From assembly GCA_045589955.1 (NCBI GenBank), contig JAZNQD010000009.1, forward strand, positions 118,814-182,813: DNA of 64,000 bases, written 5' to 3'. Numbering within the stretch: position 1 is the stretch's first letter; each line of letters opens with the position of its first letter. Below the pieces are notes generated by a model. The model made no database searches and was not told the origin of the DNA. It saw nothing but the letters and a program-made list of their open reading frames with translations. The DNA is from Bacilli bacterium (lineage in GTDB: Bacteria; Bacillota_I; Bacilli_A; ML615J-28; CAG-313). Of the stretch, positions 3,157 through 27,862 are shown piece after piece. The translations under genes and the position numbers were made by a program.

Positions 3157-4059
3157 TTATTTATATTGTGTAAGCAAATCCCTATAACCACTACAAGACG
3201 GACCATCATAATCCAAATTTAAAAAGTAATTTGCCATACACTTTAATTTAGAAGTGCAGTTTCTACAAATTTTATCTCGCTTTTTTTCCATTTCTATAAA
3301 ATAGTTATTAATTTCGTCCAAATTATCCATCTCACGCAAAGAAAAATTATTATTTTCAAAGGTTTGTACTGCGAATTTATCATTTGGAGTCATATACAAC
3401 GTTTTAACATTATAATTATCTATATTTAAAATACCTTCTAATTGTAATTTATTTTGAAAAGCAAACTTCATTTTATGAGATAATCTTAAAAACGTTCGTA
3501 CAACTTCTTCGTATTCATCATAGCCCTTAAATTTATACCTAGTATGAATTGTTTGATGAAAAGGTACAATTTCCCAAGATTTTATTTTTAGGATATTTAA
3601 TTGCTCAATAATAGCACTCTGGTCAGTTTTACAAGATATATCTAAAGATTTTACATTTATTATTTTACCCGTATCAACAGCAGCTTTAATATTTGAAAAA
3701 ACTTGTTGTTTAAATGGACTATAATCATTAAAGTTGTATTTAACATTAATAATATCACAGTTATTGATTATGCCCTTTTTAAAATTAATAAAATTAGTTT
3801 CAACAATAATTTTTTTGCAATGTATCTTTAAAATATTATAAAGCATCTCAAAATATAAATCTGAAAGTAAAGCTATTTCACCACCAGATACTTTAATTTG
3901 AGCAATATCATATTTTCGACTGATACTTGATAAACTTTCATCTAACCAAGATAAACTCATTGTATTTTGGTTTTGTTTTTCGTGACTATATAAACAAAAA
4001 CCGCAATTTTGATTACAACGATAAAGAGGAATAAGATTTACTCTAATTTGAGGTTTCAT
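3157..4059 (-). CDS. radical SAM protein with SPASM-like C-terminal Cys cluster; paralog of 23573..24481
   Basis: CNQNCGFC (CxxxCxxC) near the N-terminus, SGGEIALL glycine motif. C-terminus CRNCTSKLKC...CSGYRDLL aligns with ...CHACKYYNKC...CSGLYNLL of the 23573 ORF. Track start at 4065 is TTG; ATG at 4059 has SD GGAGA. Confidence 0.7.
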   Translation of the reverse strand: MKPQIRVNLIPLYRCNQNCGFCLYSHEKQNQNTMSLSWLDESLSSISRKYDIAQIKVSGGEIALLSDLYFEMLYNILKIHCKKIIVETNFINFKKGIINNCDIINVKYNFNDYSPFKQQVFSNIKAAVDTGKIINVKSLDISCKTDQSAIIEQLNILKIKSWEIVPFHQTIHTRYKFKGYDEYEEVVRTFLRLSHKMKFAFQNKLQLEGILNIDNYNVKTLYMTPNDKFAVQTFENNNFSLREMDNLDEINNYFIEMEKKRDKICRNCTSKLKCMANYFLNLDYDGPSCSGYRDLLTQYK

Positions 4060-4061
4060 AT

Positions 4062-4634
4062 TCAATCTCCAAAAATCATAGTTAATTTTTTAGCCAAGTT
4101 ATCTGCTGCTTTATACGCTTTTTCGCCGAACTCTTTAGTTTTTATAATAAACAATCTAGCTTGCGGATCAGACTTATCCAAATTGATTTCATACCATATA
4201 TTCTTATCTAAGAAACGACCTAATTTCTCTACATAAGATATATTTTCAACAATGAATGATACCCACAATTCTTCTTTGCCATGTCCGCAACAACTTCCTT
4301 TTGTTGTAATCCCTGGAATTAAATTTAAACTTTTTACCAAAGAGACTACTTCCGAATCTAATTCAGTAATAGGATAGTCTATATATACATCTATACCACT
4401 AAACAAATCTACATACATAGCGGTATTAAGCATATCTATACTAGTAAGCTCTTTAACGATATGTTCTGGATTAGCTTCAACGCTATACCGAGGATTACCA
4501 TCTTCTATGAAGAATAAAGTATTATCGAAACTAATCAAGCCTTGTTTTTTAGTAGATATTATTTGACCAGCCGCAAAAACTTCACCTGTTTCACGCCAAC
4601 TTAGCTTTATCCAATCACCTTCACTATAAATCAT
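4062..4634 (-). CDS. hypothetical protein
   Basis: ORF inside the radical-SAM operon. Track start at 4664 is TTG; the first ATG (MIYSEGDW) is at 4634. Confidence 0.4.
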   Translation of the reverse strand: MIYSEGDWIKLSWRETGEVFAAGQIISTKKQGLISFDNTLFFIEDGNPRYSVEANPEHIVKELTSIDMLNTAMYVDLFSGIDVYIDYPITELDSEVVSLVKSLNLIPGITTKGSCCGHGKEELWVSFIVENISYVEKLGRFLDKNIWYEINLDKSDPQARLFIIKTKEFGEKAYKAADNLAKKLTMIFGD

Positions 4635-6237
4635 TACGTACCACCCATTTACTATTAAATACAACTCTATCCATATGTGGAGTACGTTTTAAAAAGGCTA
4701 TTGCTTGTTCTGGTGTTTCTATAATCGGCTCATTCTTACCATTAAATGATGTATTAATTAAGCAAGGAATACCAGTCGCTCTATAAAACGCCATTAAAAG
4801 TGAATATAATTCTGGATTTTGCTCTTTTTCTAAACACTGTGGTCTTGTAGTCATATCGATATGACAAACTGCACTTATTTTGCGTTGCCATTCTGGTCTA
4901 ATCTTTAAAGTACGTAGCATAAATTCTGTTAAATCTTTAGATGGTGTATCAAAAACCATATCAAATAATTCAGCCGGTACAATAGGAGCTAAAGGTCTCC
5001 AGTTTTCACGATGCTTAACATAATTGTTGATTACATACAAAGCATCTCTATCCGCCGGATTTGCTAAAATAGAACGATGACCTAAAGCACGCGGACCGAT
5101 TTCGGAACCACCTTGAAACCAACCAACTACCTTACTATTACGCAATGCTAATACCAATTCGTTTTCATCATAAGCATCTGGACTTTTTTCACAAGCTGCC
5201 AAAATTTCTTCATCAGAATACGTTTGACCGACATAAGAATTTTTTAAACGTACATTGTTAATTTTATCGCCATATTTTAAAGCAGCCGAAAAAGCGTGTC
5301 CCGCTGCAACCCCGGCATCATGTGGAGCAGGTCCAGCAAATACATTTTTAAATAATCCAGATTCTACTACTAGATTATTACCTATACAGTTTTGAATACA
5401 ACCACCTGATAAAATTAAATTTTCTTCATTAGTTAATTCTTTGGCATATTTAACTACTTCCATAAATATTTCATTATAGTTTTCTTGAATAGTAGCTGCC
5501 ATATCAATATAATATAAAATATTACATTCATCTGCTGTTCTGAGAGTATATGGATAAAAATTACGTTTTAAATAATATTGCATGTTTAAAGAAGCATCTT
5601 CATTAACAATATTCGTAAAATTAGCTATTATTTCACCATTTTCCCAACGTAAAACTCTAACAGGTGTAGGTCTACCATATGAAGATAAACCCATAAATTT
5701 ACCTTCACTAAATTCACCCAAATCCGCCATTGCAACTGAAGCACTATAATACATTTTACCAAGAGACACACCCTCTGTGTATTTCTTAAGTATTTTTATC
5801 TCATTGTCTTTACAATGTGCAATAGTAATACCATCTTTACCGTCACCGTTACCATCAACAATTACCGCAACAGCACTATCAAAACCACTTTGAAAAAACG
5901 AATCACAAACATGTCCCATGTGATGATCGTAATAATAAAATTCTGGAATTTTTTTACAATTAGGGTCAATTATATCTACCACTCGTTTCGCAAACCAATC
6001 ACGTACTCTTGCTTCATGTGGTATAGCAATTACATCGATATCATCTAACGTTAAATTATTGTCTTTTAAGATTTTTTGTACAGCTAATCGTGGAAATTGT
6101 TCACCAACAGAATGCTTTAATCTATTTAAACGCTCTTCTTCTAAATTAGCGATTAATTCCCCGTCTATTACTAGTGCTGCCGAAGCATCATGATTTTGTG
6201 GACAATCAAGACTACCGCTTATTCCTAATATTTTCAT
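4624..6237 (-). CDS. carbamoyltransferase (NodU/CmcH/TobZ family)
   Basis: N-terminus ILGISGSLDCPQNHDASAALVIDGEL...EERLNRLKH matches the NodU/CmcH N-terminal Kae1-like signature (LGIS..HDsAAAL..dG...EER..R.KH). C-terminal ENWRPLAPIV and SFNGKNEPII match the CmcH C-domain. ATG at 6237 has SD AAGGGGG; the track start at 6255 is TTG. Confidence 0.7.
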   Translation of the reverse strand: MKILGISGSLDCPQNHDASAALVIDGELIANLEEERLNRLKHSVGEQFPRLAVQKILKDNNLTLDDIDVIAIPHEARVRDWFAKRVVDIIDPNCKKIPEFYYYDHHMGHVCDSFFQSGFDSAVAVIVDGNGDGKDGITIAHCKDNEIKILKKYTEGVSLGKMYYSASVAMADLGEFSEGKFMGLSSYGRPTPVRVLRWENGEIIANFTNIVNEDASLNMQYYLKRNFYPYTLRTADECNILYYIDMAATIQENYNEIFMEVVKYAKELTNEENLILSGGCIQNCIGNNLVVESGLFKNVFAGPAPHDAGVAAGHAFSAALKYGDKINNVRLKNSYVGQTYSDEEILAACEKSPDAYDENELVLALRNSKVVGWFQGGSEIGPRALGHRSILANPADRDALYVINNYVKHRENWRPLAPIVPAELFDMVFDTPSKDLTEFMLRTLKIRPEWQRKISAVCHIDMTTRPQCLEKEQNPELYSLLMAFYRATGIPCLINTSFNGKNEPIIETPEQAIAFLKRTPHMDRVVFNSKWVVRNDL

Positions 6238-6259
6238 AATACCCCCTTTAAACAATCTT

Positions 6260-7219
6260 TTAAATATACATTTCTTGAATCATTTTTTTATCACACAACA
6301 TACACGCAGGTGAATCTGAATACGATGCATATATATCATTATGTCCGCATGGTAAATCTGTAAAAGGCTCATCTTCTTCAGACTCATGTAAGGTTTCTTT
6401 ATTACGTATAAATTTACGATTTCTTTTTGTTTCTAAATTATAATTTTTACGTACTTCTTCTGCTCGTAAATCTGTACTAATTAGCTTTTCGTATTCACCT
6501 ATACCTTCTTGCTCATAAAATTTTCTTAAAAACTTCAAAAACAATTTACGACTAGGGAAGAATGGTCCAAGCACTTTATTTATTTCAGCATTTTCTAAAT
6601 GTTGTAATCCTGTCGGTTTAACCGGATTTTTCAAAAAAATCGTTGTATGATATTTTTCTCTGAAATCTTTAAATTTGAGTTTACCATCTAAGTATTCATT
6701 TATATAAGCTTCAGTTAAAATACTAGTGGTATTAATACTAACTTCAGGATATTCAGCATGTAATTTAGCTAAATGATATTCCCAAGTTTCAAACATTTTC
6801 TCAGTGTGAAATCTTCCAAAAGTATCGTATGAAGTCAAAACCCAAACATTGGCTTTATCATCTATTCTATCTAAAGTTTCATATAAATGTTTTTGATCTC
6901 CGATTAATAAAGAAGCATTTAACCATATTTTCTTTATATATTTTTTATTAAGCATATCATTTGATACATCAATCATTTCCATGAATTTATTGTAAACAGC
7001 TTCTGTATTTAATTGTCCTTGAAAGAAGTCTCCTCCAATAAAACCTAAAACTTCATGCTCATCTGGTTTAAATTCTCTTATTTCATCAATGGCTGTTTGT
7101 AAAGATTGTAATTTTAACTTTTCAGCTGTATGTAAATTATCATTGCCCAATGTACAAAAAGTACACTTACAATTACATTCTCTCCACAATTCATATTGTA
7201 ACTGTTTACTCATTGGCAT
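6260..7219 (-). CDS. radical SAM protein, family 1 (ELW..CNxKCxFC type)
   Basis: ELWRECNCKCTFC (CxxxCxxC), FIGGDFFQGQLNTEAV glycine motif, C-terminal CGH...C..CD cluster. Paralog of the 10759, 7760 and 13542 ORFs. Confidence 0.75.
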   Translation of the reverse strand: MPMSKQLQYELWRECNCKCTFCTLGNDNLHTAEKLKLQSLQTAIDEIREFKPDEHEVLGFIGGDFFQGQLNTEAVYNKFMEMIDVSNDMLNKKYIKKIWLNASLLIGDQKHLYETLDRIDDKANVWVLTSYDTFGRFHTEKMFETWEYHLAKLHAEYPEVSINTTSILTEAYINEYLDGKLKFKDFREKYHTTIFLKNPVKPTGLQHLENAEINKVLGPFFPSRKLFLKFLRKFYEQEGIGEYEKLISTDLRAEEVRKNYNLETKRNRKFIRNKETLHESEEDEPFTDLPCGHNDIYASYSDSPACMLCDKKMIQEMYI

Positions 7220-7763
7220 CTTCTTTCAATTTAATATTTATAAAATTACCTTTTTCAAAATCTTCCGTGTACATAATGCTATCAATAGTATTTGGAACCT
7301 TTTCTTTTACAACTACGCCTAAATAATCATAAACCGTTGTACTAGCTTCTTCACGCTCAGCATTTACTACCTCTAAATAACCATTCGCATTACATTCTAA
7401 GAAAATTTCAGCAAGCTTTGTATCTTTTTTAATAATTAATTCCGACGCAGTTAAATTCTGAATAAACAAACAAATTGTATCACCATCATAACAGCATCCA
7501 CCTTTAATTATATACTTTGTAGGAATAGCCACATCTTCCTCGGTATCAGATTCACCAAAAGAAACGGCTTGTCCATATTTACCTAAATACAATTCATTTT
7601 CAATATCTAAGCGCATTTTAGTATCAAAGTAAACACCTTCTCTTGCGTTTAAATGGATATCTTGTTTGGCATATAATTGTTTTCTGCTAGAATCTTCGTC
7701 TAAGCATTCATTAGATAAATATACTAAGTCTGAATCACCAAATCTAAACATCTGATCTATCAT
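7206..7763 (-). CDS. hypothetical protein
   Basis: 185 aa. ATGA overlap with the upstream gene. No motif recognised. Confidence 0.45.
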   Translation of the reverse strand: MIDQMFRFGDSDLVYLSNECLDEDSSRKQLYAKQDIHLNAREGVYFDTKMRLDIENELYLGKYGQAVSFGESDTEEDVAIPTKYIIKGGCCYDGDTICLFIQNLTASELIIKKDTKLAEIFLECNANGYLEVVNAEREEASTTVYDYLGVVVKEKVPNTIDSIMYTEDFEKGNFINIKLKEDANE

Positions 7764-8686
7764 AAATAAGCATCCCTATCTAAATTATTTAAATCACATA
7801 ATACACACTTATCGCTGTCAGCATAGCATTTATATAAGATACTGTGTCCGCATTTTTCATTTATTACTTCTTTACCGTCAGATAATACCGGTTGAGCTGT
7901 TAAATCTGCAGTGTCTCTATCTTGTAAACCAGTATATTTAAACGTACAAGAATTTTTAGTAGATTGTAAAAAGTTATAATAGACTTCACTACAATTTGTT
8001 CTTAAATACTTCATAAATTCCAAAAAATCTACACGTTTGAAATTAAAATCTGTCAATTTAAAGCCTGTTTTTATGGGATGCGGATACAAAAATGTTAAAA
8101 TATTACCAGGGATAAATTCTTTCGTAAACTGATTTACTTCAAATTTACCTTCTTTCCAAGCATCGATTAAATATTGAGTAAGAATCATTTGAACGCCTAC
8201 TCTGTAATTATATCTTTTATGGAAATCATTAATATTATTTAAACACAATAACCTAGATTCCTCATCTTTAAAGCGATATTTTAAATCATACGAAAAGTTA
8301 ATATCTACCTTATCAATACCAACTGCATCCACAATCCTATCAACAACTCTATATAAAAACGTTGGATCATACAAACCATTGGTAACAGTTGAGTACTTAC
8401 AATATGGATTTGGGGAAACTTTTAATACTTTTTCAATAATGATATCAATTAACTCAATAAAAGAATCTTGTAATTTTTTATCAGTAATATAATAAAGCTC
8501 ACCACCAAGTAAAGATATACCGTTCGAGAATTTATCTTTAAAATCAATGTAGTTAATATTTTCTTTTATTTTATCTAATAGTACAAACTGTTTCTTTTTT
8601 GAATACGGAATTCTATCTGCACGTAAACAAAACTTACAGGCATTACAACAATTAGACCACACTGAATATTGTATCATATTAGACAT
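7760..8686 (-). CDS. radical SAM protein, family 1
   Basis: SVWSNCCNACKFC, LLGGELYY, C-terminal CGHSILYKCYADSDKCVLCD. SD GAGAG upstream. Confidence 0.75.
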   Translation of the reverse strand: MSNMIQYSVWSNCCNACKFCLRADRIPYSKKKQFVLLDKIKENINYIDFKDKFSNGISLLGGELYYITDKKLQDSFIELIDIIIEKVLKVSPNPYCKYSTVTNGLYDPTFLYRVVDRIVDAVGIDKVDINFSYDLKYRFKDEESRLLCLNNINDFHKRYNYRVGVQMILTQYLIDAWKEGKFEVNQFTKEFIPGNILTFLYPHPIKTGFKLTDFNFKRVDFLEFMKYLRTNCSEVYYNFLQSTKNSCTFKYTGLQDRDTADLTAQPVLSDGKEVINEKCGHSILYKCYADSDKCVLCDLNNLDRDAYL

Positions 8687-11708: not shown

Positions 11709-12626
11709 TTAATTTCCATATAATTTAAAAAACATTTGTGCAACATCATACATCTTGTTATTAGAATCTATGAAGCCTATATCATATTTTTTAGTTTTAT
11801 CACTTAATTCACATCTACCGTCGCCGCTTCGTCTATCTTCTGCTACTCTAACTTTACCATTTTCTATAAAAAACAATGTGTTAGACCTCAATTCCATAGA
11901 CAAAAAAGAATCTCTATTAATCAAATCTTTATGAATAGCTTTCTTTAAAAATTTCAAAAAAGTTTCTTTTTTAGGAAAAAACCCCGGCAAATCCTTTTCA
12001 CAAGCATATTTATCTACATAATATAAGCCAGAAGAAGGCTCTATGTAATCAACTGAAGTATTAAACACTTCTTTAAAGGCTTTTAAATCAAATTCATCAT
12101 TTAATACAGCATTTAAAAACCATTCTGTTAAAATAATTTCAGTATGAAGACGTAACTCTGGATAGTTATCTTTTAAAAATAACATATTACGCTTCCACAA
12201 TTCTTTATGTTCTTGAGTTTTAAATCTATACTTGACATCAAAAGAGGTACATAATACAATTTTATCTAATAATTGTATTTTACGTAAATAATCCAAAAAT
12301 GGTATTAAATCAATATTAATATCGTAGATTAATGCCGCGGTTATGTATATCTTTGAAAAATTAAGTTTAGATACATCATAAAATAAATTATAAAAAACAG
12401 GCTTTATAAGTGGATCTAATTCGCCATTGAAAAATTCACCACCAATAAAGCCTATCTCATCGTGTTTTATGATTTGTAACTCTTTTAATTTAGCCGTAAT
12501 AAACTGTAAAGATTGTAACTTATCAATTTTAGGTTGACCTTTATTACAACAAAATTTACAACCTATCTTACAATCTTTCCATAATTCAAATTGAACAAAT
12601 GTATTTTCATTTTTAAAATTAGTCAT
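11709..12626 (-). CDS. radical SAM protein, family 1b (no C-terminal Cys cluster)
   Basis: ELWKDCKIGCKFC, FIGGEFFNGEL. The C-terminus lacks the CGH..C..CD motif. Close paralog of 12619..13542. The printed sequence differs from the track by 1 nt near the start. Confidence 0.7.
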   Translation of the reverse strand: MTNFKNENTFVQFELWKDCKIGCKFCCNKGQPKIDKLQSLQFITAKLKELQIIKHDEIGFIGGEFFNGELDPLIKPVFYNLFYDVSKLNFSKIYITAALIYDINIDLIPFLDYLRKIQLLDKIVLCTSFDVKYRFKTQEHKELWKRNMLFLKDNYPELRLHTEIILTEWFLNAVLNDEFDLKAFKEVFNTSVDYIEPSSGLYYVDKYACEKDLPGFFPKKETFLKFLKKAIHKDLINRDSFLSMELRSNTLFFIENGKVRVAEDRRSGDGRCELSDKTKKYDIGFIDSNNKMYDVAQMFFKLYGN

Positions 12627-18268: not shown

Positions 18269-18274
18269 AAAACC

Positions 18275-18691
18275 ATGAATGAAAATCTAAAAAATAGAAG
18301 AAAATTAGCATATTACATAAACAAATGGGACGACATAAATCTACCATATCATGAAGATTACAAAAATATACCCGAACAAGTGATTTCTTTTTTCAAAACT
18401 GAATCTAACTTGGTATATCCGGCAAAGACAATCTTCGTAGCTATAATTTATGCTAAATGCTTGGAACAATACTTTGATGTGCCTTTTTATGAAAGTTTAG
18501 ATGATATCGAATTGTTATTTGATGACAAATATTTTAACAAGTATACATATTCTCAATTCAAAAATGAATATGATTATATACTAAGTACTCTAACAGATAT
18601 TTTAAACTATCCGGCAGCACAAAAAACGATAGACTATTTTAAAAAAGAGTTTCTCTATGGAATTGATTATAAAACCAACCGGTCGTTGTAA
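18275..18691 (+). CDS. hypothetical protein
   Basis: 138 aa. First gene of the plus-strand operon. Overlaps the next gene by 35 nt. Confidence 0.45.
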   Translation: MNENLKNRRKLAYYINKWDDINLPYHEDYKNIPEQVISFFKTESNLVYPAKTIFVAIIYAKCLEQYFDVPFYESLDDIELLFDDKYFNKYTYSQFKNEYDYILSTLTDILNYPAAQKTIDYFKKEFLYGIDYKTNRSL

Positions 18692-19613
18692 TTTTAATTG
18701 TAAATTTTGCAGTGCGAATTTATTAGATATTAAACACAGTACAACAGTTTCTACTCAATTAAAAACTGTTTTAAATACAATAAAACCTGATAATATTATT
18801 TTTACCGGTGGAGATCCATTACTTGTAAGTCCTGACTATTATAATGAAATCTTATCGCTTGGAAACTGGAATATTGCTTTTACTACCAATTTAAAAGATT
18901 TTTATTTAAATCCCACAAAATGGATATCACTGTTTAAAAATCCGAGAGTTGGCATAGGAACCTCTTTTCAATATGGAAACAAAAGATTATGGGATAACAA
19001 CGCTCCTTATACCGAAAAACTATTTATTGATGTTATGCAAAAATTTTATAATGAAATTGGATATACTCCTCCTTTTATTTCATTAATAGATACAGATAAC
19101 GAAGATAAAGCTTTGGACCATGTATACTTAGCTAAAAAATTAAATACAAAATGTAAACTTAACGGTACATTGCCTCTTGGTAAGTCAAAATGTTTTTATC
19201 CAACTTATAAAATGATAAAAATATGGTTAGAAATCAAAGACTTAGGTTTAGAAGAATATTTAGATACACAAATACAGTTTTATGAAGGGGGTTGTAATTT
19301 CAACACAAGCCTTTATTGTGAATCTACTATTCGTACATTTTGGTTAAACGAACATGGTGAAGTACAATATGGAAATTGTGAAGATTGTTCAACACTAGGG
19401 CAACGTATTCCTTTAGATAAAATCAGACCAATACCGGTAAAAAAACAAATTGAAATAAATGATACTATAAACGATAAATGTTGTTATTGTGAATTATTTA
19501 AATTGTGTAACGCTTGTCGTTCCTTACAACGCATAAATAAACAAACCCCCGAGCACTGTGAAGAAATGCTAAAATTAAAACCAAGAATAATAGAGGCAAA
19601 ATGGAAGATATAA
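18657..19613 (+). CDS. radical SAM / SPASM-like protein, family 2
   Basis: GRCNFNCKFC, FTGGDPLL, C-terminal CCYCELFKLCNACR Cys cluster. Confidence 0.75.
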   Translation: MELIIKPTGRCNFNCKFCSANLLDIKHSTTVSTQLKTVLNTIKPDNIIFTGGDPLLVSPDYYNEILSLGNWNIAFTTNLKDFYLNPTKWISLFKNPRVGIGTSFQYGNKRLWDNNAPYTEKLFIDVMQKFYNEIGYTPPFISLIDTDNEDKALDHVYLAKKLNTKCKLNGTLPLGKSKCFYPTYKMIKIWLEIKDLGLEEYLDTQIQFYEGGCNFNTSLYCESTIRTFWLNEHGEVQYGNCEDCSTLGQRIPLDKIRPIPVKKQIEINDTINDKCCYCELFKLCNACRSLQRINKQTPEHCEEMLKLKPRIIEAKWKI

Positions 19614-20401
19614 AGACATTATATGCTATCCCACATTATAATTGTAACTTAGCATGTCCACATTGTGATTTATTTAAAAAACAAACAAATTATGATGAAG
19701 AGCATTTTATGTATTCATTAAATAATGTAAAAGCAGAAGAAATCGTTTTGTTTGGTGGTGAACCTCTTTTATATAAAGACAAATTACTAAAAATACTACA
19801 AACAAATAAAATATCATCTATTTCAACAAATCTATTAAACATTGATTTAGATATCTTAAATAATCTAAAAAAATATAATATACACATAGCTACATCATGG
19901 AATAATATACGATTAAATAAACAACAATATATAACATGGATAAATAATATACATAAAATAAATATATATAATATTGACTGTATTGTACTTATAACTCTGA
20001 CGGATGATCTGATACACAATACTGAGAAACTGACTGATACGCTGACTGATTTAGATAAAACAAGAATAAGAGGTGTATTATTTGAACAACTATTGGATTA
20101 TTCTAAAGACCAAAGTTTTTATGAAAAAGTAGACACGTTCCTATGTAAGATATCCGAAAATTGGCAATATTCGTTCAAAAACTTAATTATTGACAAATTA
20201 AATACTTGGAATTGTGATTGTAAAAAAACATATACTCTCGAACCAACCGGAATAATCCGTAAAGGTTGTCCACAATATATTCAACCACAAATAGTCAATG
20301 AATGCTTATCATGTTCTTTAGCAAATATATGTAAACCTTGTCCGTTACAAAAGCACTGTTCTTTTCCTAAAAAATTATACGTGATGTTTAAAAATGCTTA
20401 A
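19601..20401 (+). CDS. radical SAM / SPASM-like protein, family 2
   Basis: HYNCNLACPHC, FGGEPLL, C-terminal CLSCSLANICKPCPLQKHC. Confidence 0.7.
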   Translation: MEDIKTLYAIPHYNCNLACPHCDLFKKQTNYDEEHFMYSLNNVKAEEIVLFGGEPLLYKDKLLKILQTNKISSISTNLLNIDLDILNNLKKYNIHIATSWNNIRLNKQQYITWINNIHKINIYNIDCIVLITLTDDLIHNTEKLTDTLTDLDKTRIRGVLFEQLLDYSKDQSFYEKVDTFLCKISENWQYSFKNLIIDKLNTWNCDCKKTYTLEPTGIIRKGCPQYIQPQIVNECLSCSLANICKPCPLQKHCSFPKKLYVMFKNA

Positions 20402-21404
20402 TACTAAATATGCTTTAGATATTGTACTTTTTTCTGACTGTAACTTAAATTGTTTACATTGCTTTCAAACACACATAAAAAATGATATAGATAAACAATA
20501 CTTAAATGACTTGCCACAAATTATACATAAACATTTATTAGAAAAGCTTAAAGCAAATCCTAATATAAATGAAATAACTTTATCATTACGTGGCGGTGAA
20601 ATTTTTCAAGATAGATTTTCCGAAGACCAATTAGAACAATACCTTAATGTCTTTAAATTCGTCATACATAATTCACACGAATATTACCCTCATATAAAAT
20701 TTAATTTACATTGTATGTCAAATGGAATTTTTACAAAAACGAATCGTATCATAGATTTTTTAAAACATAACAATATTTCAATATCTTTATCTTATGACGG
20801 TTACGGTAGATTTAATACAAATACACTTTCTAAATTCAAAGAAAATTGTTTGGAACTAAAATCATTTATTAAAGACATTAGTATAACCTTAACCAAGCCT
20901 TCTGTTGAACAATACCTTTCCTCTGATGAATTACTTTTCTTCACTAATCATAATCTATTACTGGACTTTAACTATTACATTCCAACAAAAAATATCGATG
21001 ACTTAATAATATCAGATGAAGTATTATACGCCTTTTACAATTACTTATTAGAAAAGCATATATTTAATTGCAAATATTTAATCGATTTATTTGAAAGTCT
21101 TCTTACAAATAAAAAAATATATCCTTCTTGTAATTGTCAAAATACCGAAGTTTTAGTTAATGGAAAATATTATACAAACTGTACACTTAATAGTTCTTTA
21201 TCAAATATACAAATAAAAAACAAAGCTTTAAACAAAAGACAATGCTTATTTTGTGAAAATTATAATAATTGTTATGGTTATTGTTGGTTATCTATTCTTC
21301 ATGATAAATATATAATTTCAGAATGTCCACACAAAAAACTATTAATACAGATTAAAACGAACCCAATTTATATCAATAATTACTTAAAATGGAAAACACA
21401 ATGA
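20394..21404 (+). CDS. radical SAM / SPASM-like protein, family 2a
   Basis: SDCNLNCLHC, RGGEIFQD, C-terminal RQCLFCENYNNCYGYCWLSIL. Confidence 0.75.
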   Translation: MLNTKYALDIVLFSDCNLNCLHCFQTHIKNDIDKQYLNDLPQIIHKHLLEKLKANPNINEITLSLRGGEIFQDRFSEDQLEQYLNVFKFVIHNSHEYYPHIKFNLHCMSNGIFTKTNRIIDFLKHNNISISLSYDGYGRFNTNTLSKFKENCLELKSFIKDISITLTKPSVEQYLSSDELLFFTNHNLLLDFNYYIPTKNIDDLIISDEVLYAFYNYLLEKHIFNCKYLIDLFESLLTNKKIYPSCNCQNTEVLVNGKYYTNCTLNSSLSNIQIKNKALNKRQCLFCENYNNCYGYCWLSILHDKYIISECPHKKLLIQIKTNPIYINNYLKWKTQ

Positions 21405-22507
21405 CTTTCTCAATTATTCCATTCTATACTCAACCTAAATCATATGAAATAGCTTGTATGTTATTTGAAAGCTGTAATCTTCGTTGTAAATTTTGCTTTG
21501 AACCACATACCAATAATAAAATTGATACAGCATATATCGAAAGTATTCCAGATTTATTATTACCAGAATTCGAAAAGGTATATCAAAAAGATCCTACTAT
21601 TGAACAAATATATCTTATGTTATGGGGAGGAGAAGTTTTCTATGATAGTTTATCCGATGAAGTATTTCAAACATATTATCGGTTTGTAGATAAGTTAACT
21701 GCATTGTTTAATGAACATTTTCCTAAAGTCAAAATACTATTTTCTTGGTTATCAAATGGTGTATTTACAAAAAGAGAACGCGTTGAAAAGATAGTAAGAT
21801 ATTCAAAAGGTATAATAAATTTCAGTTATGATCCAGTAAATCGATTCTCATCACCAAAACAATTACAGATTATGTTAGAAACGGCTATTTATTTTAAAAA
21901 AATTGGATTAGGCGATAAAATTTCAATTACTTTAACAAAAGATTCTATACACGGTTTTATAACTAACAAATCACATTTAATATTCTTTAATAGTTTAGGA
22001 TATAACATAGATGTTAATTACTATATAGCCAATCCAAACTGGAAAGAATTATTACCAACAGATAATGAAATATTTACATTTATTAAATGGGCTTTAGATA
22101 ACCGTTTATTTAATATGAAAATCTTACAAAAACTCTTACTTCCATATCTAAATCAACCGGTCTCACATTATTGTGATTGTAAATATTGTTCACAGCTAAC
22201 CTATGGTGAATGGAGTGTAGATTGTGCAAAATGTAGCTCTGTATTACCAGCAAAAGATTTTTATGGTGAAGCAACTGAAATTATAAATGAAGAAAATACA
22301 AATGATATAAAAGCAACATTAGGTATACGAAAAAGAAAATGCTTATTGTGTAAATATTATAATTCTTGTCAAATGCCTTGTTGGATTTCAATTTTATTTA
22401 AAGGTTTTGAACCCACAGAGTGTTTTTATAAACAAGCTTTTGAATATATCGAACAGCATCCTACTTTTGTAAAAGAGTTTGAAAGGTGGTTGAAAAACAA
22501 TGATTAA
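21389..22507 (+). CDS. radical SAM / SPASM-like protein, family 2a
   Basis: ESCNLRCKFC, WGGEVFYD, RKCLLCKYYNSCQMPCWISIL. An alternative ATG at 21401 gives an ATGA overlap with the upstream stop. Confidence 0.75.
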   Translation: MENTMTFSIIPFYTQPKSYEIACMLFESCNLRCKFCFEPHTNNKIDTAYIESIPDLLLPEFEKVYQKDPTIEQIYLMLWGGEVFYDSLSDEVFQTYYRFVDKLTALFNEHFPKVKILFSWLSNGVFTKRERVEKIVRYSKGIINFSYDPVNRFSSPKQLQIMLETAIYFKKIGLGDKISITLTKDSIHGFITNKSHLIFFNSLGYNIDVNYYIANPNWKELLPTDNEIFTFIKWALDNRLFNMKILQKLLLPYLNQPVSHYCDCKYCSQLTYGEWSVDCAKCSSVLPAKDFYGEATEIINEENTNDIKATLGIRKRKCLLCKYYNSCQMPCWISILFKGFEPTECFYKQAFEYIEQHPTFVKEFERWLKNND

Positions 22508-23585
22508 TATTCCTTCAGAAAATAGATTTGGTTTTGATTGCTTACTTTTCGAGGCTTGTAATTTAAATTGTACGTTTTGTTTAGAAGCACATAATAATAC
22601 TAAAATTGATTATAATTGGATTCAGTCTATTCCTTTACGTCTAGTAGAAAGATTTAAAAAAGAATATGTAAAATTTCCAAATACTAAATTGATTACTATT
22701 AGATTATGGGGTGGAGAACTGTTTTATGATGCTTTACCAGATTCAATATTCCAAGTATATACAGATTTAGTACAATCTTTTATTACTGAATTTGGAATAG
22801 CCTTTCCTGATATTACACTTTCATTTGCTTGGGTATCAAACGGGGTATTCACAAAAACAGAGCGCTTAATTAAATTATTAAAAAACACAAATAGTCTGTT
22901 AAATATTAGTTACGACCCGGTTGGCAGATATAAGACTAAAAAACAAGAAGAATTAATGTTAGCTAATTGTAAATTATTTACGGACTTAAATCTCTTAGAT
23001 GAAATTTCAATAACTTTAACCAAACCTAATATTCAAGCTTATATTACTAATAAATCTAGATTATTTGATCTTAATTTTGTAAAAAAGATAGATATTAATT
23101 ACTATATACCAAATCCACTTTGGAAAGAATTATTACCAAATGATGAAGATTTGTTTATGTTTTTTAAATGGTGTGCCGATAATAGATTTTTTACAATTTT
23201 AGATTTTAAACGAGTTTTAGATACTTTAACTAAACCAAATGAAAAAGTAGAATTAGTATGTAATTGTCATAAACATCTATCTGCTTGTAAAGACTGTATT
23301 ACCTATAATTGTGTTACAAGCTCTTCTATTTTACCACAAAACCTATTTTATGATAAATATACAAATGAAATAAACGAAGATAATGTTAGTGATATAAAAC
23401 GTAAATTAAGTTTGCATAAAAGAGGTTGTTTATTCTGTGAATATGCTAACATTTGTCCTAAAATCTGTTGGACTTCAATTTTATTTAAAGAATATATAGC
23501 AACAGAATGCCCAATGCAACGTTTATATAAATATCTACAAGACAATAAACAAATATTAGAGGATTATAAAAAATGGAGTTATTAA
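22500..23585 (+). CDS. radical SAM / SPASM-like protein, family 2a
   Basis: EACNLNCTFC, WGGELFYD, RGCLFCEYANICPKICWTSIL. SD AAGGTGG. Confidence 0.75.
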   Translation: MINIPSENRFGFDCLLFEACNLNCTFCLEAHNNTKIDYNWIQSIPLRLVERFKKEYVKFPNTKLITIRLWGGELFYDALPDSIFQVYTDLVQSFITEFGIAFPDITLSFAWVSNGVFTKTERLIKLLKNTNSLLNISYDPVGRYKTKKQEELMLANCKLFTDLNLLDEISITLTKPNIQAYITNKSRLFDLNFVKKIDINYYIPNPLWKELLPNDEDLFMFFKWCADNRFFTILDFKRVLDTLTKPNEKVELVCNCHKHLSACKDCITYNCVTSSSILPQNLFYDKYTNEINEDNVSDIKRKLSLHKRGCLFCEYANICPKICWTSILFKEYIATECPMQRLYKYLQDNKQILEDYKKWSY

Positions 23586-24481
23586 ACGGTTTATCTATAA
23601 TGCCCTCTTTATATTGTAACTATAACTGTGAGTATTGCTATTTAGGGGATTTAAGAAAAAACAAAACTCTTTTAGATTTAGATATACTCGCTAATCGTTT
23701 AAATGAAATAACACAAAACTATACAATTCAACATACAACTTTATATGGTGGTGAAATATCTCTATTACCACAAACATACTTAAATGATTTATTGCAACTT
23801 GTAAAAGATTATAATCCAGCGTTTGTAACAAATTTATCCCAAGAATGGTTTTTAAATTACTGCTTAATAAACAATGTTAAACTTAGTATATCGTTAAATG
23901 AAGAAAGAACCAATTACAATAAAACGTTGCAGATTCTTAAGACGTTAAAAGGTATTAAATCAATTTGTTTATCTGTTGTTGTTTTACCTAGTTTACTAAA
24001 GAAAGATTCTTTTGAAATTCTAGATTTTTTTGAAGATTTAGGGTTTGATGTTATTTTTATTCAATATCACCCTTCTATTCATTCTAAAGTCGTTTATAAT
24101 ATCACAACAAAAGATTACAGTGATTTTTTATTACGTATCCTAAAAGCTAAATACGAACGCGACTACAAATTCAAAATACAAAATGAGATTGTGCTTAGAG
24201 ATACAACATACCGAGCAACGGCTGACAGTTTTATGTTTATTAATCAAAATGGTAATTTCAGTTCAATTAAATATAACGAGAAAGAAGAAGAATATTTCGT
24301 AGAATTTAATACTTTACAAGAATGGAAAGACTTTTGTAAGCAAGAACAAAAACTATATTATACAAAGTGTCATGCTTGTAAATATTATAATAAATGTAAA
24401 GCTGAACATTTAGTCAATCTAGAAAAAGATAATTGTTCAGGTCTATATAATTTATTAGAAGAATATTCACAAATTGGATAA
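23573..24481 (+). CDS. radical SAM / SPASM-like protein (paralog of 3157..4059)
   Basis: LYCNYNCEYC, YGGEISLL, C-terminal CHACKYYNKC...CSGLYNLL. SD AGAGGA. Confidence 0.75.
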   Translation: MELLNGLSIMPSLYCNYNCEYCYLGDLRKNKTLLDLDILANRLNEITQNYTIQHTTLYGGEISLLPQTYLNDLLQLVKDYNPAFVTNLSQEWFLNYCLINNVKLSISLNEERTNYNKTLQILKTLKGIKSICLSVVVLPSLLKKDSFEILDFFEDLGFDVIFIQYHPSIHSKVVYNITTKDYSDFLLRILKAKYERDYKFKIQNEIVLRDTTYRATADSFMFINQNGNFSSIKYNEKEEEYFVEFNTLQEWKDFCKQEQKLYYTKCHACKYYNKCKAEHLVNLEKDNCSGLYNLLEEYSQIG

Positions 24482-24487
24482 CAAGAG

Positions 24488-25168
24488 ATGACTGTAACAA
24501 CTGGACAACTTATCGTAAAAACTAGTCGTGATTCATTAGTCGGTGCAATAAATGACTTTAACGATAGAGTGACAAATGCAATTTATAATCAAGTTGCATA
24601 CAATTCTTCAACGTATCCTTATTTTTCTGGATCGGTGACTTATGGTACAACAGGTGCATCATCAGTAGAAGCATTTGTAAATCCTATTGCTATTCCATCT
24701 GGTCAACTCGCTGCTGTTGATACACGTCCTACATGGTCAATCGGTGATACTATAATTACTGCCTCTACACTTTGGAATAATATGTTATCTATTACTAAAA
24801 CTCTCATAAAAATAAGAGGTTTTACTGCAAATTGGTATCATAGAACAGATAGTACAGATAATTTAAAGCAAACAATAAATAGTGTTGGATTTTTTAATTT
24901 AAGTTGGCCAGCAGTGCCCACAGGTACATTAACTGCAGCTACAGCAACATCAAATTGGACCAGAACAGGAACCTTAAATCCTACACTTTCTCCTGCAACA
25001 CAAATTACATCGGGTGCAACAGCTACAGCCGCTACAATGAATAATACTATTCAAAATTGTTATAATGCTTGGAAAACAAATTGCCTTGACAGTAGAGTAG
25101 TATATAATTTTTATACTTGTCATCAAAATTGTCATAGTAGTTGTCATAGTAGTAGAGGACGTAGATAA
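24488..25168 (+). CDS. family-A-like protein with Cys/His/Ser-rich C-terminal tail (putative substrate)
   Basis: Starts MTVTTGQLIVKT...; family A of 17529 starts MSLATGQTIKYK... The body is T/S/A/N-rich. It ends ...NCYNAWKTNCLDSRVVYNFYTCHQNCHSSCHSSRGRR. Confidence 0.55.
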   Translation: MTVTTGQLIVKTSRDSLVGAINDFNDRVTNAIYNQVAYNSSTYPYFSGSVTYGTTGASSVEAFVNPIAIPSGQLAAVDTRPTWSIGDTIITASTLWNNMLSITKTLIKIRGFTANWYHRTDSTDNLKQTINSVGFFNLSWPAVPTGTLTAATATSNWTRTGTLNPTLSPATQITSGATATAATMNNTIQNCYNAWKTNCLDSRVVYNFYTCHQNCHSSCHSSRGRR

Positions 25169-25882
25169 ATGATATATACTGGTCTACCTTATGATATGGA
25201 TATACTTGGTAATATTGACAATGAAGGTGCGGTTGTTGATATGTCAAACTTAAATTACCCTGGTATACAAAAAGAAGATAATGTTAGAGTAAGTTATATT
25301 TATTTAAGAAATACTGCTTTTAATAATGTTACTTTGGATTTTAATCAAACCTCTTATGAATTTAAACGAGATTTCCTTTTATTTTATATAAATGGTGATA
25401 TATTTTATGAAATCGAATCCTGTACAAACACTTGGATTAAGATACTCGGTTTATATAATCAACAAGATTTTCCAATTGATACGATTTTTACACAAGATGA
25501 ATTATGTCAATTTATAAAAGAGAATTTAACTGAGATCATAAAATTAAATAACATCATAGCATCTTTACCTGTATATTTATTTTTACGTTTAAATATTGAA
25601 GATCCTGAAAATTTTAATTTTAATGATATAGAAACAGATGATACTACAACCTGTAACGATAATATCATTTTTATCATTAAAAACCAATTTTTTAATTTTT
25701 TATATGAAGCTTTAAATGCAGATACACCAAGGATATATTCAAAATTATTCACTGAAACGAATAATCTTTTATTTGAAACAATAATGCAATATACACCTTT
25801 CGGTATTTTATTATATGGAATGAATCAACCAGATTGGTCTAAGTTTGTAGATGGATTAGAAACTATTTGTAAGGATATCTAA
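25169..25882 (+). CDS. hypothetical protein
   Basis: 237 aa. ATG immediately follows the upstream stop. Confidence 0.45.
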   Translation: MIYTGLPYDMDILGNIDNEGAVVDMSNLNYPGIQKEDNVRVSYIYLRNTAFNNVTLDFNQTSYEFKRDFLLFYINGDIFYEIESCTNTWIKILGLYNQQDFPIDTIFTQDELCQFIKENLTEIIKLNNIIASLPVYLFLRLNIEDPENFNFNDIETDDTTTCNDNIIFIIKNQFFNFLYEALNADTPRIYSKLFTETNNLLFETIMQYTPFGILLYGMNQPDWSKFVDGLETICKDI

Positions 25883-25884
25883 AT

Positions 25885-26889
25885 ATGCTTAAACAAATAA
25901 AACCTTTATCAATAGAAACAGTATTACAAGATCCATTATATAAATTTGATTATAGTGCAGATTACACAGAAGAAATTTCTATAGATATACCTAATGTTGA
26001 AACATATACAACACCAAATCAATATTTGCGTTATTTAGTAAATAAATTAAGTACTAATATTTCAGAGTATAAATTAAAATACAATAAAATTAATATCGCT
26101 CATAACAATTTAGATGCTTTTTGTACAAAGTCTAAATATATAACCGTAACATTATTAAAGAGTGATTTAACTACCTTTTCAAACCTTATTCTTACAGATT
26201 CAGAGGATTTGGAATACTTATTACAGCATCAATTACAAGAAATATATTATTTTGGAAATACTGATACTTTAGTTTTACCAACTTGTATCCATGAATATCT
26301 ACAAAACAATTCTTATTTAAAATGTAGTATTTTGGCTTATGATTTACACTTAAGTACAAATAAACTACTCAAAACATATAGTGTTCCTTTTGATATTCCA
26401 ACTTTAAAATTTTCCTGTTTATCAAATACTGCATATTATCCTACATTTAAAGAAAAACATTATTTAGAAATACCTACTCCTAAAGAAATTGATTATATAG
26501 ATTGTTATGCATTATATACCAATTTACCAAAAGAATTATATACTAATATAATCTTTGAAAATAAAACTTTACATTACAATATCACTAATAAACAATTTTA
26601 TGGTGCAGAAGGAATAAATGAAACTAATTTAGCTTTATGCTGTAAACATTTATCTGAAAATCCATTAGATAGAGTTATTGTATTACGTTTAACAAAAGAT
26701 GGTCATTTTATACCTCTTTGGAGTACTAAACAATTATTAGCTTCTTTATATATTGGATATCCTGAAATACCTGTATGTATATTAAGTGAACAATATCATT
26801 TACCTACTTCTTTTATTTCTAAGAAAAATGATATTGACATAGAAAAAACAAAAGATTTCTTAAAACCTTACTTTATGTTACATGACTAA
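25885..26889 (+). CDS. hypothetical protein
   Basis: 334 aa. SD AAGGATA. Confidence 0.45.
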   Translation: MLKQIKPLSIETVLQDPLYKFDYSADYTEEISIDIPNVETYTTPNQYLRYLVNKLSTNISEYKLKYNKINIAHNNLDAFCTKSKYITVTLLKSDLTTFSNLILTDSEDLEYLLQHQLQEIYYFGNTDTLVLPTCIHEYLQNNSYLKCSILAYDLHLSTNKLLKTYSVPFDIPTLKFSCLSNTAYYPTFKEKHYLEIPTPKEIDYIDCYALYTNLPKELYTNIIFENKTLHYNITNKQFYGAEGINETNLALCCKHLSENPLDRVIVLRLTKDGHFIPLWSTKQLLASLYIGYPEIPVCILSEQYHLPTSFISKKNDIDIEKTKDFLKPYFMLHD

Positions 26890-27862
26890 AAAAGTAATTT
26901 ATATAAAACTGACAAATGCTTGTAATTTAAAATGTAAACATTGCTATAATGAGATTATGCAAAATCATAATTTTATGTCAGATAATGTTTTAAATCAAAC
27001 AATACAATATATAAAGACTTTTAAAAACACTGAAATAGATTTACATATACATGGTGGAGAACCTCTTTTATTTGATCTTGATAAAATTGAATATCTTATT
27101 TCTGAATTAAAAGATTATACCTTTAAATGGACAGTTACTACTAATCTAATATATGAAATAACAGATAAGCATTTAAATATTTTTAAGAAGATGCTTCCTT
27201 ATGATAATAATCCTTTAATATTAACTTCTTGGGATTATAAAATTCGTTTTAAAGATAATCAACAATCTTTATGGGAAAATAATGTAAGATATCTAATTGA
27301 AAAAGGTATACAAGTACAACCAATTGTATGTTTAACAAATCTTCTTATAGAAAATTTAAAACCAGAAGATATATTTTTGTATTTTAAAAGATTTAATATT
27401 AAACGTTTTAATTTTGAAAGAATAACTAATACTGGAAATGCTTTAGTAAATAATCTTAGACCTACAAATGAAAATTTACAGAATTGGTTATTAGATGCTT
27501 ATAAAATATATGAAAAACGAAAAGATATTGAAATTCCTTTATTTACAGGTTTAGAGTATTCTTTAAAAGGTATTTTTTTAGGTTGTAGAAATAGACAATG
27601 TACTAATAATGTTATAACGATAAATCCAAATGGTACTATAGCTAGTTGTCCTAATACTGCTGATTATACTTTTAATGATATTTTTACTAATAATCTTCAA
27701 ATATCAAAAAAGGACTATATTACAAATAAAGAAAATTCAAAAGATTTAAGATGTTTAATTTGTGAATTTTATAAATATTGTAATGGAGATTGTTTTCAAT
27801 TAGAATTTGATGATACTAATTGTCCTGGATTAAAAAAACTTTATAAGTACCTTTTAAAATAA
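26882..27862 (+). CDS. radical SAM / SPASM-like protein, family 2
   Basis: NACNLKCKHC, HGGEPLLFD, C-terminal LRCLICEFYKYCNGDCFQLEF. Confidence 0.75.
   Translation: MTKKVIYIKLTNACNLKCKHCYNEIMQNHNFMSDNVLNQTIQYIKTFKNTEIDLHIHGGEPLLFDLDKIEYLISELKDYTFKWTVTTNLIYEITDKHLNIFKKMLPYDNNPLILTSWDYKIRFKDNQQSLWENNVRYLIEKGIQVQPIVCLTNLLIENLKPEDIFLYFKRFNIKRFNFERITNTGNALVNNLRPTNENLQNWLLDAYKIYEKRKDIEIPLFTGLEYSLKGIFLGCRNRQCTNNVITINPNGTIASCPNTADYTFNDIFTNNLQISKKDYITNKENSKDLRCLICEFYKYCNGDCFQLEFDDTNCPGLKKLYKYLLK

Follow-up and report, generated by a model that had tools for sequence, protein, structure and literature searches.

The 64,000-nucleotide stretch analysed here, positions 118,814 to 182,813 of contig JAZNQD010000009.1 (assembly GCA_045589955.1, deposited as a Bacilli bacterium) and referred to below as the window, is clearly phage DNA, and between its positions 3157 and 27862 lies an island of 14 genes for radical S-adenosylmethionine (rSAM) enzymes. 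Encoded among these genes are two families of proteins, designated T and H, whose C-termini form conserved tails rich in Ser and Cys or in Cys and His. The island is most likely an undescribed phage system for the heavy chemical modification of the phage's own proteins. With moderate confidence we read it more narrowly, as a two-module, late-expressed system in which protein tails would be matured in a manner resembling that of peptides made by the ribosome and modified post-translationally (RiPPs). This reading draws on the enzymes, whose nearest characterized relatives, as judged by sequence comparison, modify peptides (YydG/EpeE, DynA, PapB, anSME and CteB), and on the tailed proteins, whose conservation and gene order support the view that they behave as dedicated partners of the rSAM enzymes.

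Fourteen radical SAM enzymes in two modules

The window is AT-rich, with a G+C content of about 22-35%, and encodes an SbcC-like nuclease subunit, a ClpP-like head-maturation protease, a GroEL-like chaperonin, a portal protein and an endolysin. A first-pass annotation of this DNA, made from the sequence alone, had listed 14 open reading frames (ORFs) with an N-terminal CxxxCxxC motif, and this number proves exact: the 14 ORFs are 266-372 amino acids long, carry the motif within residues 11-36 and all lie in 3157-27862, and the remainder of the window contains no other such ORF. When the residues of the 34 ORFs with 250 or more amino acids were shuffled, such ORFs numbered 0.026 on average and one at most, versus the 14 observed. 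A GGE or GGD motif lies downstream of CxxxCxxC in all 14, and the genes are arranged as originally described, seven on each strand, in two operons that diverge from 18210-18274. The Pfam Radical_SAM model (PF04055) matches 13 of the 14 ORFs (E ≤0.005), four of them above the gathering score; the remaining ORF, at 12619-13542, has no match of its own, yet is 44% identical to the one at 11709-12626. The three cysteines of CxxxCxxC, the motif that ligates the [4Fe-4S] cluster at which SAM is bound and cleaved, are 100% conserved in every ortholog alignment, GGE being a SAM-binding motif as well, and many of the orthologs carry a precomputed PF04055 match. The 14 ORFs are real rSAM enzymes.

SPASM-type Cys clusters had been ascribed to most of these enzymes, which by Cys pattern applies to the plus-strand set and not to the six core enzymes of the minus strand, designated family A. 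No ORF matches the Pfam SPASM model (PF13186), and the NCBIfam SPASM model (TIGR04085) is passed by the ORF at 26882-27862 alone (30.1 bits, cut-off 27). The exact pattern CX2CX5CX3C is found in four enzymes (R20394, R21389, R22500 and R26882), CX2CX5CX2C in two (R18657 and R19601) and a twitch-like set of four cysteines in two (R23573 and R3157), while four have a CGH...CxxC site and two have no conserved set. All-against-all comparison, together with synteny in related contigs, divides the island into two modules. Module 1, on the minus strand, reads from 18209 down to 3157 in the order T1, U1, x16448, x15672, T2, U2, R13542, R12619, R11709, R10759, P9713, P8689, R7760, x7206, R6260, carbamoyltransferase, x4062 and R3157; module 2, on the plus strand from 18275 to 27862, comprises x18275, R18657, R19601, R20394, R21389, R22500, R23573, H, x25169, x25885 and R26882.

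Family A consists of R13542 (13542-14408, CNNNCKFC), R12619 (12619-13542, CRNGCKFC), R11709 (11709-12626, CKIGCKFC), R10759 (10759-11706, CNSKCTFC), R7760 (7760-8686, CCNACKFC) and R6260 (6260-7219, CNCKCTFC). R7760 is the best conserved, at 55-72% identity in most related loci and 46% in locus L017; R11709 is a paralog of R12619 that is present in some of the phages only. The elements CxxxCxxC, GGE, TN..Y and S.D...RF are invariant in the family, and a C-terminal site, C-G-H...C-x-x-C-D, is present in four of the six orthologous groups (those of R13542, R10759 and R6260 among them) and missing from R12619 and R11709. The AlphaFold model of R13542, the one member modelled, has a mean predicted local distance difference test score (pLDDT) of 90.6 and shows the partial TIM-barrel fold of rSAM enzymes. 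A Foldseek search with this model returned 23 matches with E ≤0.001, every one an rSAM enzyme, of which the first was EpeE (5e-6); viperin-like enzymes, anSME, DesII, QueE and MiaB came next, at TM-scores of about 0.45-0.56. When a family-A profile built from R13542, its homologs and its window paralogs was compared with all Protein Data Bank (PDB) sequences, YydG/EpeE was the only match (6.3e-8). A profile search for the family retrieves 821 relatives at E ≤0.001 (clusters at 90% identity); the best 120 of these are all metagenomic and none is functionally named.

EpeE is an rSAM enzyme with two [4Fe-4S] clusters that epimerizes a ribosomal peptide encoded adjacent to it through abstraction of the C-alpha hydrogen, the resulting radical being quenched by Cys223 on a flexible loop (PMC13012085). 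The alignment of family A to EpeE ends before residue 223. The curated YydG model, TIGR04078, has a cut-off of 300 bits that no island enzyme reaches, R23573 scoring 27.6 and R3157 scoring 23.4, and family-A members taken individually do not match it. As defined by these comparisons family A is a new rSAM subfamily, and its relation to YydG/EpeE is visible only at the level of profile and fold. The seventh rSAM gene of the minus strand, R3157 (3157-4065), is a paralog of R23573 (E 7.5e-14); it has no ortholog in related loci and therefore lies outside the conserved core.

In the enzymes of module 2 the SPASM-like or twitch-like Cys sets are conserved. R26882 (26882-27862, plus strand) is a bona fide rSAM/SPASM protein with a seven-Cys pattern that aligns over its full length with DynA (1.5e-16), anSME (9e-14) and PapB; its anSME score is 51 bits against a cut-off of 349, and its best PDB match is 5WGG (1e-4), which we take to be the sactisynthase CteB. 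The other six show weak matches to RiPP maturases. Three of these, R18657 (18657-19613), R19601 (19601-20401) and R23573 (23573-24481), pass the Radical_SAM gathering score with 37.2, 33.1 and 30.5 bits, respectively, and R23573 matches AmcB (4.5e-7) and YydG (1.9e-6). The remaining three, designated family B, are R20394 (20394-21404), which matches YhhB (1.6e-8) and, weakly, quino_hemo_SAM (0.009); R21389 (21389-22507), which matches a CXXX-repeat maturase (7.6e-5) and ChlB (3.5e-4); and R22500 (22500-23585). Because these scores fall far below the family-specific curated cut-offs, the module-2 enzymes belong to no named family.

Tailed proteins and their linkage to the enzymes

Three island proteins end in Ser/Cys- or Cys/His-rich tails, as had been noted: T1 (17529-18209, minus strand, 226 amino acids), T2 (15002-15691, minus strand, 229 amino acids) and H (24488-25168, plus strand, 226 amino acids). 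They had been grouped with two untailed proteins into five paralogs located at or beside the operon heads. The paralogous set has in fact four members, T1, T2, U1 (16988-17527, 179 amino acids) and U2 (14429-15001, 190 amino acids), all encoded on the minus strand; H is unrelated to them (hhalign E 0.25 versus the T family, on which its candidacy as a T paralog was rejected) and is encoded late in the plus-strand operon. T1 and T2 are 44% identical and U1 and U2 45% identical, and T and U proteins match each other at E values of 1e-6 to 1e-9 (1.6e-6 for U1 against T1). In both pairs the start codon of U is placed at the preceding T stop codon or no more than one nucleotide away, that of U1 being one nucleotide past the T1 stop codon and U2 abutting the stop codon of T2, and in most loci T is followed by a U gene. 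This junction suggests that translation of T and U is coupled and that the two proteins may form a complex.

T proteins are predicted to combine a folded domain of about 190 amino acids with a disordered C-terminal tail, 25-40 residues long, that ends in [F/Y]I[A/V/G]YM[D/E/K][I/L]. In T1 the tail reads SSSCS(15)CSSSSS and in T2 S(20)CSSSSS, both followed by TFIAYMDI; the consensus of the family is CSSSSSSSSCSSSSS-x-F-I-A-Y-M-[D/E/K]-[I/L]. The predicted model of T1 has a pLDDT of 78, with the tail disordered, and structure searches found no fold match for the N-terminal domain, which we therefore refer to as an orphan fold. A database search with full-length T1 returned 62 metagenomic homologs, and in all 62 the Ser/Cys tail and the hydrophobic terminus are present. 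A second search, with the N-terminal domain only, against 1.84 billion cluster representatives, returned 136 relatives in which the tail was again present once gene fragments and U-type proteins had been set aside. Since the N-terminal domain alone still retrieves tailed proteins, the tail is not an artefact of a low-complexity query. Nor does it represent a microsatellite or DNA repeat, an explanation rejected on codon usage: the T1 tail draws on five of the six Ser codons and the T2 tail on six, so that all six occur between the two, interleaved with one another, which argues that poly-Ser is selected at the level of the protein. The tails are about 85% Ser and contain from one to about eight Cys residues, and both their length and their Cys number vary even among close relatives.

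H defines a second substrate-like family, with 38 homologs. The window protein has the C-terminal end YTCHQNCHSSCHSSRGRR and finishes in YTCHxNCHxxCxxxRGRR. The family C-terminus can be written N-C-Y-N-x-W...Y-T-C-H-x-N-C-H-x-x-[C/W]-x-x-x-R-[G/S/N]-R-R and contains between two and five CHxx repeats; nearly all full-length homologs keep these repeats as well as the R-x-R-R end. Neither the T nor the H tails contain the anSME target motif (C/S)xPxR, and no Pfam match to an NHLP or Nif11 leader was found in T or H.

A protein containing a T domain was also found as part of a larger polypeptide. In L017 the gene at 4398-6320 encodes 640 amino acids that comprise about 390 residues of repeats some 24 residues long ('CY..MF..C..L...P.LPATTL'), a T domain and a Ser/Cys tail whose last residues are IFIAYFNI, and a second tailed T gene follows this fusion gene. 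An assignment of the repeats as leucine-rich or BspA-like was considered and is unconfirmed, as Pfam finds nothing in them.

A search of phage and metagenome databases for the same gene neighborhood, which the first-pass annotation had proposed, showed that both modules recur in contigs of uncultivated jumbo phages, 65-314 kb in length. The carrier phages are uncultivated jumbo phages of the gut or rumen. Megablast of the island and tblastn of T against the INPHARED phages both returned nothing; thus no cultivated phage in that collection carries the island. The recurring module-1 cassette is x15672-T-U-R13542-R12619-(R11709)-P8689-R7760-R10759-small-R6260-x4062, found in IMG/VR, JGI and ENA contigs and in contigs binned into metagenome-assembled genomes (MAGs) at protein identities of 30-72%. 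The order of its genes is shuffled among phages, and the arrangement x15672-T-U-R13542-R12619... persists at 30-70% identity. A search with R13542 as query recovered related loci, and among 24 such loci 22 have a T gene within 10 kb of a family-A rSAM gene. Module 2 with H stands beside module 1 in L004, L011 and L012; the short contig L021 shows part of it. At L015:9461-10882, the site that corresponds to window positions 2572-28465, the interval between homologs of the genes at 2572-3135 and 28136-28465 holds only x16448 and one R13542-like rSAM gene; on this same contig module 1 is located elsewhere, at L020, and in both L019 and L020 it has counterparts of the window's late genes around it. 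The modules thus change location as units. The neighbors of module 1 include predicted tail proteins in L003 and, in phages of the L001 type, one protein with a weak discoidin-domain match.

A short sequence element connects the heads of the island with other parts of the phage genome. GTTCTA, often as AGTTCTAWA, lies in the sense orientation 27-48 nucleotides upstream of T1, x15672 and six morphogenesis-block genes outside the island, at 30976, 36424, 37597, 41851, 47730 and 57595, and 12 nucleotides upstream of x18275. The sites are at 16437-16445, 18244-18252, 18262-18270, 31558-31563, 36397-36402, 37552-37557, 41815-41820, 47681-47689 and 59649-59657; of the 20 occurrences in the window, nine fall at sense-upstream positions, which make up 2.9% of the total (p 2e-9). 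Two of these sites form an inverted pair, at 18244-18252 (minus) and 18262-18270 (plus), in the divergent control region between the modules (18210-18274). Among the closer relatives, L004, L011, L015 and L019 keep the element ahead of T, x16448 or R13542. L004 has both the divergent layout and the motif of 18210-18274, L011 shares the x18275 motif and L021 shares the layout. A scan for sigma-70 promoters gave matches no more frequent than in shuffled sequences. GTTCTA is probably a phage-specific promoter element common to the island heads and the morphogenesis block, and its sharing would indicate that the two are co-expressed.

Proposed maturation of protein tails and its alternatives

The island has one trait of RiPP clusters, a precursor-like gene that adjoins the maturases and encodes a conserved, modifiable C-terminal core, and it has this trait twice, in T and in H. 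Tails and enzyme sets persist together across divergent jumbo phages. In the scheme that we favor, module 1 would make T with its untailed partner U, and the enzymes of the six family-A orthologous groups would act on the T tail; module 2 would make H, around which seven SPASM/twitch rSAMs are encoded. Each rSAM would generate a 5'-deoxyadenosyl radical that abstracts hydrogen from the C-alpha or C-beta of a tail Ser or Cys, with the seven conserved residues that close T, or the RGRR with which H finishes, serving as the recognition handle. The most likely outcome for family A would be C-alpha epimerization to D-Ser or D-Cys, and for the SPASM set the formation of Cys thioether or carbon crosslinks. 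Optional tailoring could be provided by the carbamoyltransferase, through O-carbamoylation of Ser hydroxyls, by the TYW3-like protein x4062 and by the desulfurase-like proteins that lack a catalytic lysine. The modified tail would be retained on the protein, and the product would probably be late or virion-associated, with a tail that is protease-resistant or crosslinked; such a link to the late program or the virion is suggested by the fusion of T domain and tail to a 390-residue repeat domain in L017, by the location of module 1 among late genes in L019 and L020 and near predicted tail proteins in L003, and by the shared GTTCTA element.

Family A resembles YydG/EpeE, the maturase of the Bacillus subtilis epipeptide YydF/EpeX, in its size of about 300-320 amino acids and in the position of CxxxCxxC at residues of about 14-21, in addition to the profile and structure matches given above, whereas the island is phage-borne and pairs six paralogous enzymes with a protein of about 220 amino acids that has a poly-Ser/Cys tail, in place of a 49-residue peptide modified at Val and Ile. 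Module 2 shares its CX2CX5CX3C-type Cys sets with rSAM/SPASM maturases of RiPPs (CteB, PapB, DynA/DarE, YhhB/AmcB, and those of the CXXX-repeat and Cys-every-fifth types), and the CHxx repeats of H resemble a CXXX-repeat core adjoining its enzymes; it differs from them in devoting seven enzymes to one substrate-like protein, in the size of that folded protein (226 amino acids), in being encoded by a phage and in the absence of a detected RiPP recognition element (RRE), protease or transporter. In proteusin pathways such as that of polytheonamide, several rSAM enzymes act repeatedly on one precursor and epimerization is a major modification. The island is similar in that several rSAMs would act on one ribosomal product with a large N-terminal part, and differs in lacking an NHLP or Nif11 leader match and B12-dependent rSAM methyltransferases, and in the orphan fold of the T N-terminal domain. 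The large leader of proteusins has been described (PMC10858898). Finally, QhpD/QhpC, which crosslinks Cys to Asp or Glu, and anSME, which converts Cys or Ser to formylglycine in sulfatases, are likewise rSAM/SPASM systems that act on Cys or Ser within a protein, whereas the island has neither the (C/S)xPxR motif nor an amine dehydrogenase or sulfatase context, and its scores are under the curated cut-offs.

As far as its genes indicate, the island works like an rSAM RiPP pathway and belongs to no named family, the cut-offs of the YydG, SPASM-family equivalog, anSME, SufS and TYW3 models all being missed. It is set apart from the known cases by the number of its rSAM enzymes, by a new enzyme subfamily, by poly-Ser cores, by folded precursors of orphan fold with a paired paralog and by its location in jumbo phages. 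Full-text literature searches found no description of this arrangement, in agreement with the first-pass annotation, which had not recognized it as a described system.

Several observations weigh against tail maturation. Searches of the accessory ORFs with Pfam, NCBIfam and PHROG gave no match to an RRE or PqqD-like domain, a leader protease or an exporter, and the rSAM enzymes have no N-terminal extension ahead of CxxxCxxC. To our knowledge, poly-Ser has not been described as a core sequence for rSAM enzymes. The similarity of family A to YydG is limited to the N-terminal 176 positions, and at the TM-scores given above enzymes with nucleotide or sugar substrates (viperin-like enzymes, DesII, QueE and MiaB) are structurally almost as near to family A as EpeE. 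Accessory proteins show affinities to nucleic-acid or nucleotide enzymes, one being TYW3-like, another possibly dUTPase-like and a third a carbamoyltransferase of a family common in cyanophages. In L015 and L018 an R13542-like gene occurs without a nearby T, the L015 contig being the same as that of L020, which has T. The promoter-like motif is clade-specific and putative, and we infer, rather than observe, both that the tails are substrates and what chemistry is installed on them.

The carbamoyltransferase predicted earlier in the minus-strand operon (4624-6255) is firmly identified as a NodU/CmcH-type enzyme by Carbam_trans_C (PF16861; 1e-56, 191.6 bits) and Carbam_trans_N (PF02543; 2e-31, 110.4 bits), both above the gathering score. 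It is 28-30% identical to annotated carbamoyltransferases of cyanophages and pelagiphages, and is an optional member outside the conserved core, yet it adjoins module 1 in two divergent phages, those of the window and L017. The two proteins that had been called paralogs of a pyridoxal 5'-phosphate (PLP) fold, P9713 (9713-10762) and P8689 (8689-9720; 35% identical to P9713 and a conserved module-1 member), fared less well. Weak cysteine-desulfurase matches, that is, to a class V aminotransferase fold, speak for the assignment (P9713 to SufS at 5e-6, 25.6 bits against a cut-off of 475), while Pfam finds nothing in either protein and the lysine that binds PLP is missing. In a 13-member P8689/P9713 alignment compared with a working IscS reference sequence, the His, Asp and Thr-x-His positions of IscS are kept and the lysine is replaced by Ala or Ser (TAHA or TAHS versus SGHK, TAHA being the form in P9713); support for the fold comes from NCBIfam and from hhalign against this IscS sequence, and a P8689-family profile found no match among PDB sequences. 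At best P8689 and P9713 share the PLP fold, and conventional PLP enzymes they probably are not; they may be pseudo-enzymes or carry out unconventional chemistry. In the family of x4062 (4062-4664, minus strand) TYW3 is the top Pfam match in all six members examined and the only one in five, with a best E value of 0.002. The window protein itself scores 11.8 bits against TYW3 (PF02676), below the gathering score of 27, and the family resembles the PDB TYW3 homolog PH1069 at the level of a motif (E 0.03). This motif, ELD..V..LV..LN...GIETTGSCCGHG, contains the TYW3-like ETTGSCCGHG, and we regard the relation to TYW3 as a lead only. The small, beta-rich x7206 (7206-7763, minus strand) occupies a slot between two family-A rSAM genes, R10759 and R6260, that is conserved, with counterparts at L001:16924-17400 and L003:17642-18157; identification as a dUTPase was rejected, since its matches are all sub-threshold (E 0.5-0.9).

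Rather than retaining a modified tail, T and H could act as carriers whose C-terminal residues are converted to an excised, diffusible small molecule or cofactor that serves as a toxin, signal or cofactor during infection, as pyrroloquinoline quinone is made from PqqA, mycofactocin from MftA, and products of the pearlin type. PqqA and MftA have cores that contain Tyr and an acidic residue, and the invariant T terminus [F/Y]IAYM[D/E]I contains both; six to seven conserved rSAM enzymes with a carbamoyltransferase, TYW3-like and PLP-fold proteins resemble a multistep pathway, and R3157 has a weak match to MftC (0.018). We nevertheless consider this route unlikely, because the peptidase, exporter and PqqD-like partner that it calls for were not found among the accessory ORFs in Pfam and NCBIfam searches, because the folded N-terminal domain of 190 amino acids, the paired U and the repeat fusion of L017 favor a protein as the end product, and because the wide differences in tail length and Cys number among close relatives are unexpected for a defined precursor.

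Slightly less probable still is that the rSAM enzymes and accessories hypermodify phage DNA, nucleotide precursors or tRNA as a countermeasure to host defense, with T, U and H merely sharing their operons. Phage DNA hypermodification clusters that combine rSAM with PLP enzymes are known (PMC5889632, PMC8989533), as are carbamoyltransferases by which phages modify cytosine (PMC8670742), and their phage-borne mixture of rSAM, PLP-fold and carbamoyltransferase genes is indeed like that of the island; the presence of viperin-like enzymes, DesII, QueE and MiaB among the structural neighbors of family A, the recurrence of viperin as a weak NCBIfam match, the TYW3-like motif of x4062 and the sub-threshold dUTPase matches of the x7206 slot point in the same direction. 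The enzymes that activate bases or transfer groups to them in such clusters are missing from the island, however, whose ORFs show no homolog of thymidylate synthase or hydroxymethylase, kinase, aGPT-Pplase, glycosylase-fold transferase, glycosyltransferase or TET/JBP in Pfam, NCBIfam or PHROGs, and neither 14 rSAM enzymes nor conserved tails have a counterpart in those described clusters. Moreover, hypermodification would leave the conservation of the tails and the linkage of T to rSAM genes unexplained, the SPASM/twitch-type enzymes of module 2 match peptide maturases best, the sole significant PDB sequence match of family A is a peptide epimerase, and the PLP-fold proteins lack the catalytic lysine. 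That the tails work as encoded, as flexible linkers or in the binding or delivery of metal or Fe-S clusters to Fe-S enzymes, while the rSAMs are directed at host targets for takeover or anti-defense, is quite improbable: Cys/His tails could bind metal, the H terminus reads like a zinc knuckle and desulfurase-like proteins are encoded in the operon, but a T tail, about 85% Ser and in some cases with a single Cys, makes a poor metal site, the desulfurase-like proteins are unlikely to mobilize sulfur because the PLP lysine is missing, and the strictly retained hydrophobic terminus and six rSAM orthologous groups beside T fit enzyme-substrate pairing better.

Should the maturation scheme hold, these phages would devote about 25 kb of their genomes to applying radical chemistry to their own proteins, a chemistry that has until now been known chiefly from peptide natural products of bacteria. 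Tail modification of this kind may explain the resistance to proteolysis or the host binding of virion proteins of gut phages. More tentatively, and with less confidence than in the scheme itself, we suggest that in this clade of jumbo phages from gut-type samples up to 14 rSAM enzymes could turn the poly-Ser/Cys and CHxx tails into a heavily epimerized, crosslinked and, in some phages, carbamoylated appendage that acts as part of the virion or on the surface of the host, which would be the first RiPP-like pathway with a phage structural or host-interaction product. T/U, H and the family-A rSAMs emerge from the analysis as three families without prior annotation. As family A is large (821 clusters) and unnamed among the best 120 relatives, it offers ready enzyme-substrate pairs in which to look for new reactions of rSAM enzymes on sequences rich in Ser and Cys.

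Remaining island genes and the phage context

The other island proteins are conserved and resist classification: x15672, x16448, x18275, x25169, x25885, U and x7206 have no family match in Pfam, PHROG or NCBIfam. The helical protein x15672 (15672-16400, minus strand, 242 amino acids) is the head gene of module 1 in most phages and lies directly upstream of T in most loci; x16448 (16448-16975, minus strand, 175 amino acids) has homologs that adjoin T/U or R13542 in L004, L011, L015 and L021. Module 2 begins with x18275 (18275-18691, plus strand) and includes x25169 (25169-25882) and x25885 (25885-26889), the latter lacking CxxxCxxC. A hairpin resembling a bidirectional intrinsic terminator, at 28468-28497, closes the plus-strand block; it is a perfect, GC-containing stem of 11-12 base pairs with T-runs on both strands, and is the sole terminator-like site found in 14000-29000.

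No tRNA or tmRNA gene was found in the window (1-64000). Read with genetic code 11, the ORFs are closely packed and uninterrupted, and there is thus no sign of stop-codon reassignment. Assignment of a host from MAG bins was attempted and rejected, as five bins name unrelated taxa and the contigs are probably mis-binned phage DNA.

Beyond the hairpin, the gene at 28517-30976 encodes an 819-residue protein without a family match whose C-terminal region is highly acidic and rich in Pro, Asp and Glu; its homolog in L015 is 1309 amino acids long. The ClpP-like protease is encoded at 31661-32362 and the GroEL-like chaperonin at 34656-36302 (phrog_5725, 2e-127). A separate protein of 929 amino acids, encoded at 47730-50519 and distinct from the ClpP-like protease, matches the head-maturation-protease family phrog_207 (1.2e-14) over its N-terminal 310 residues.

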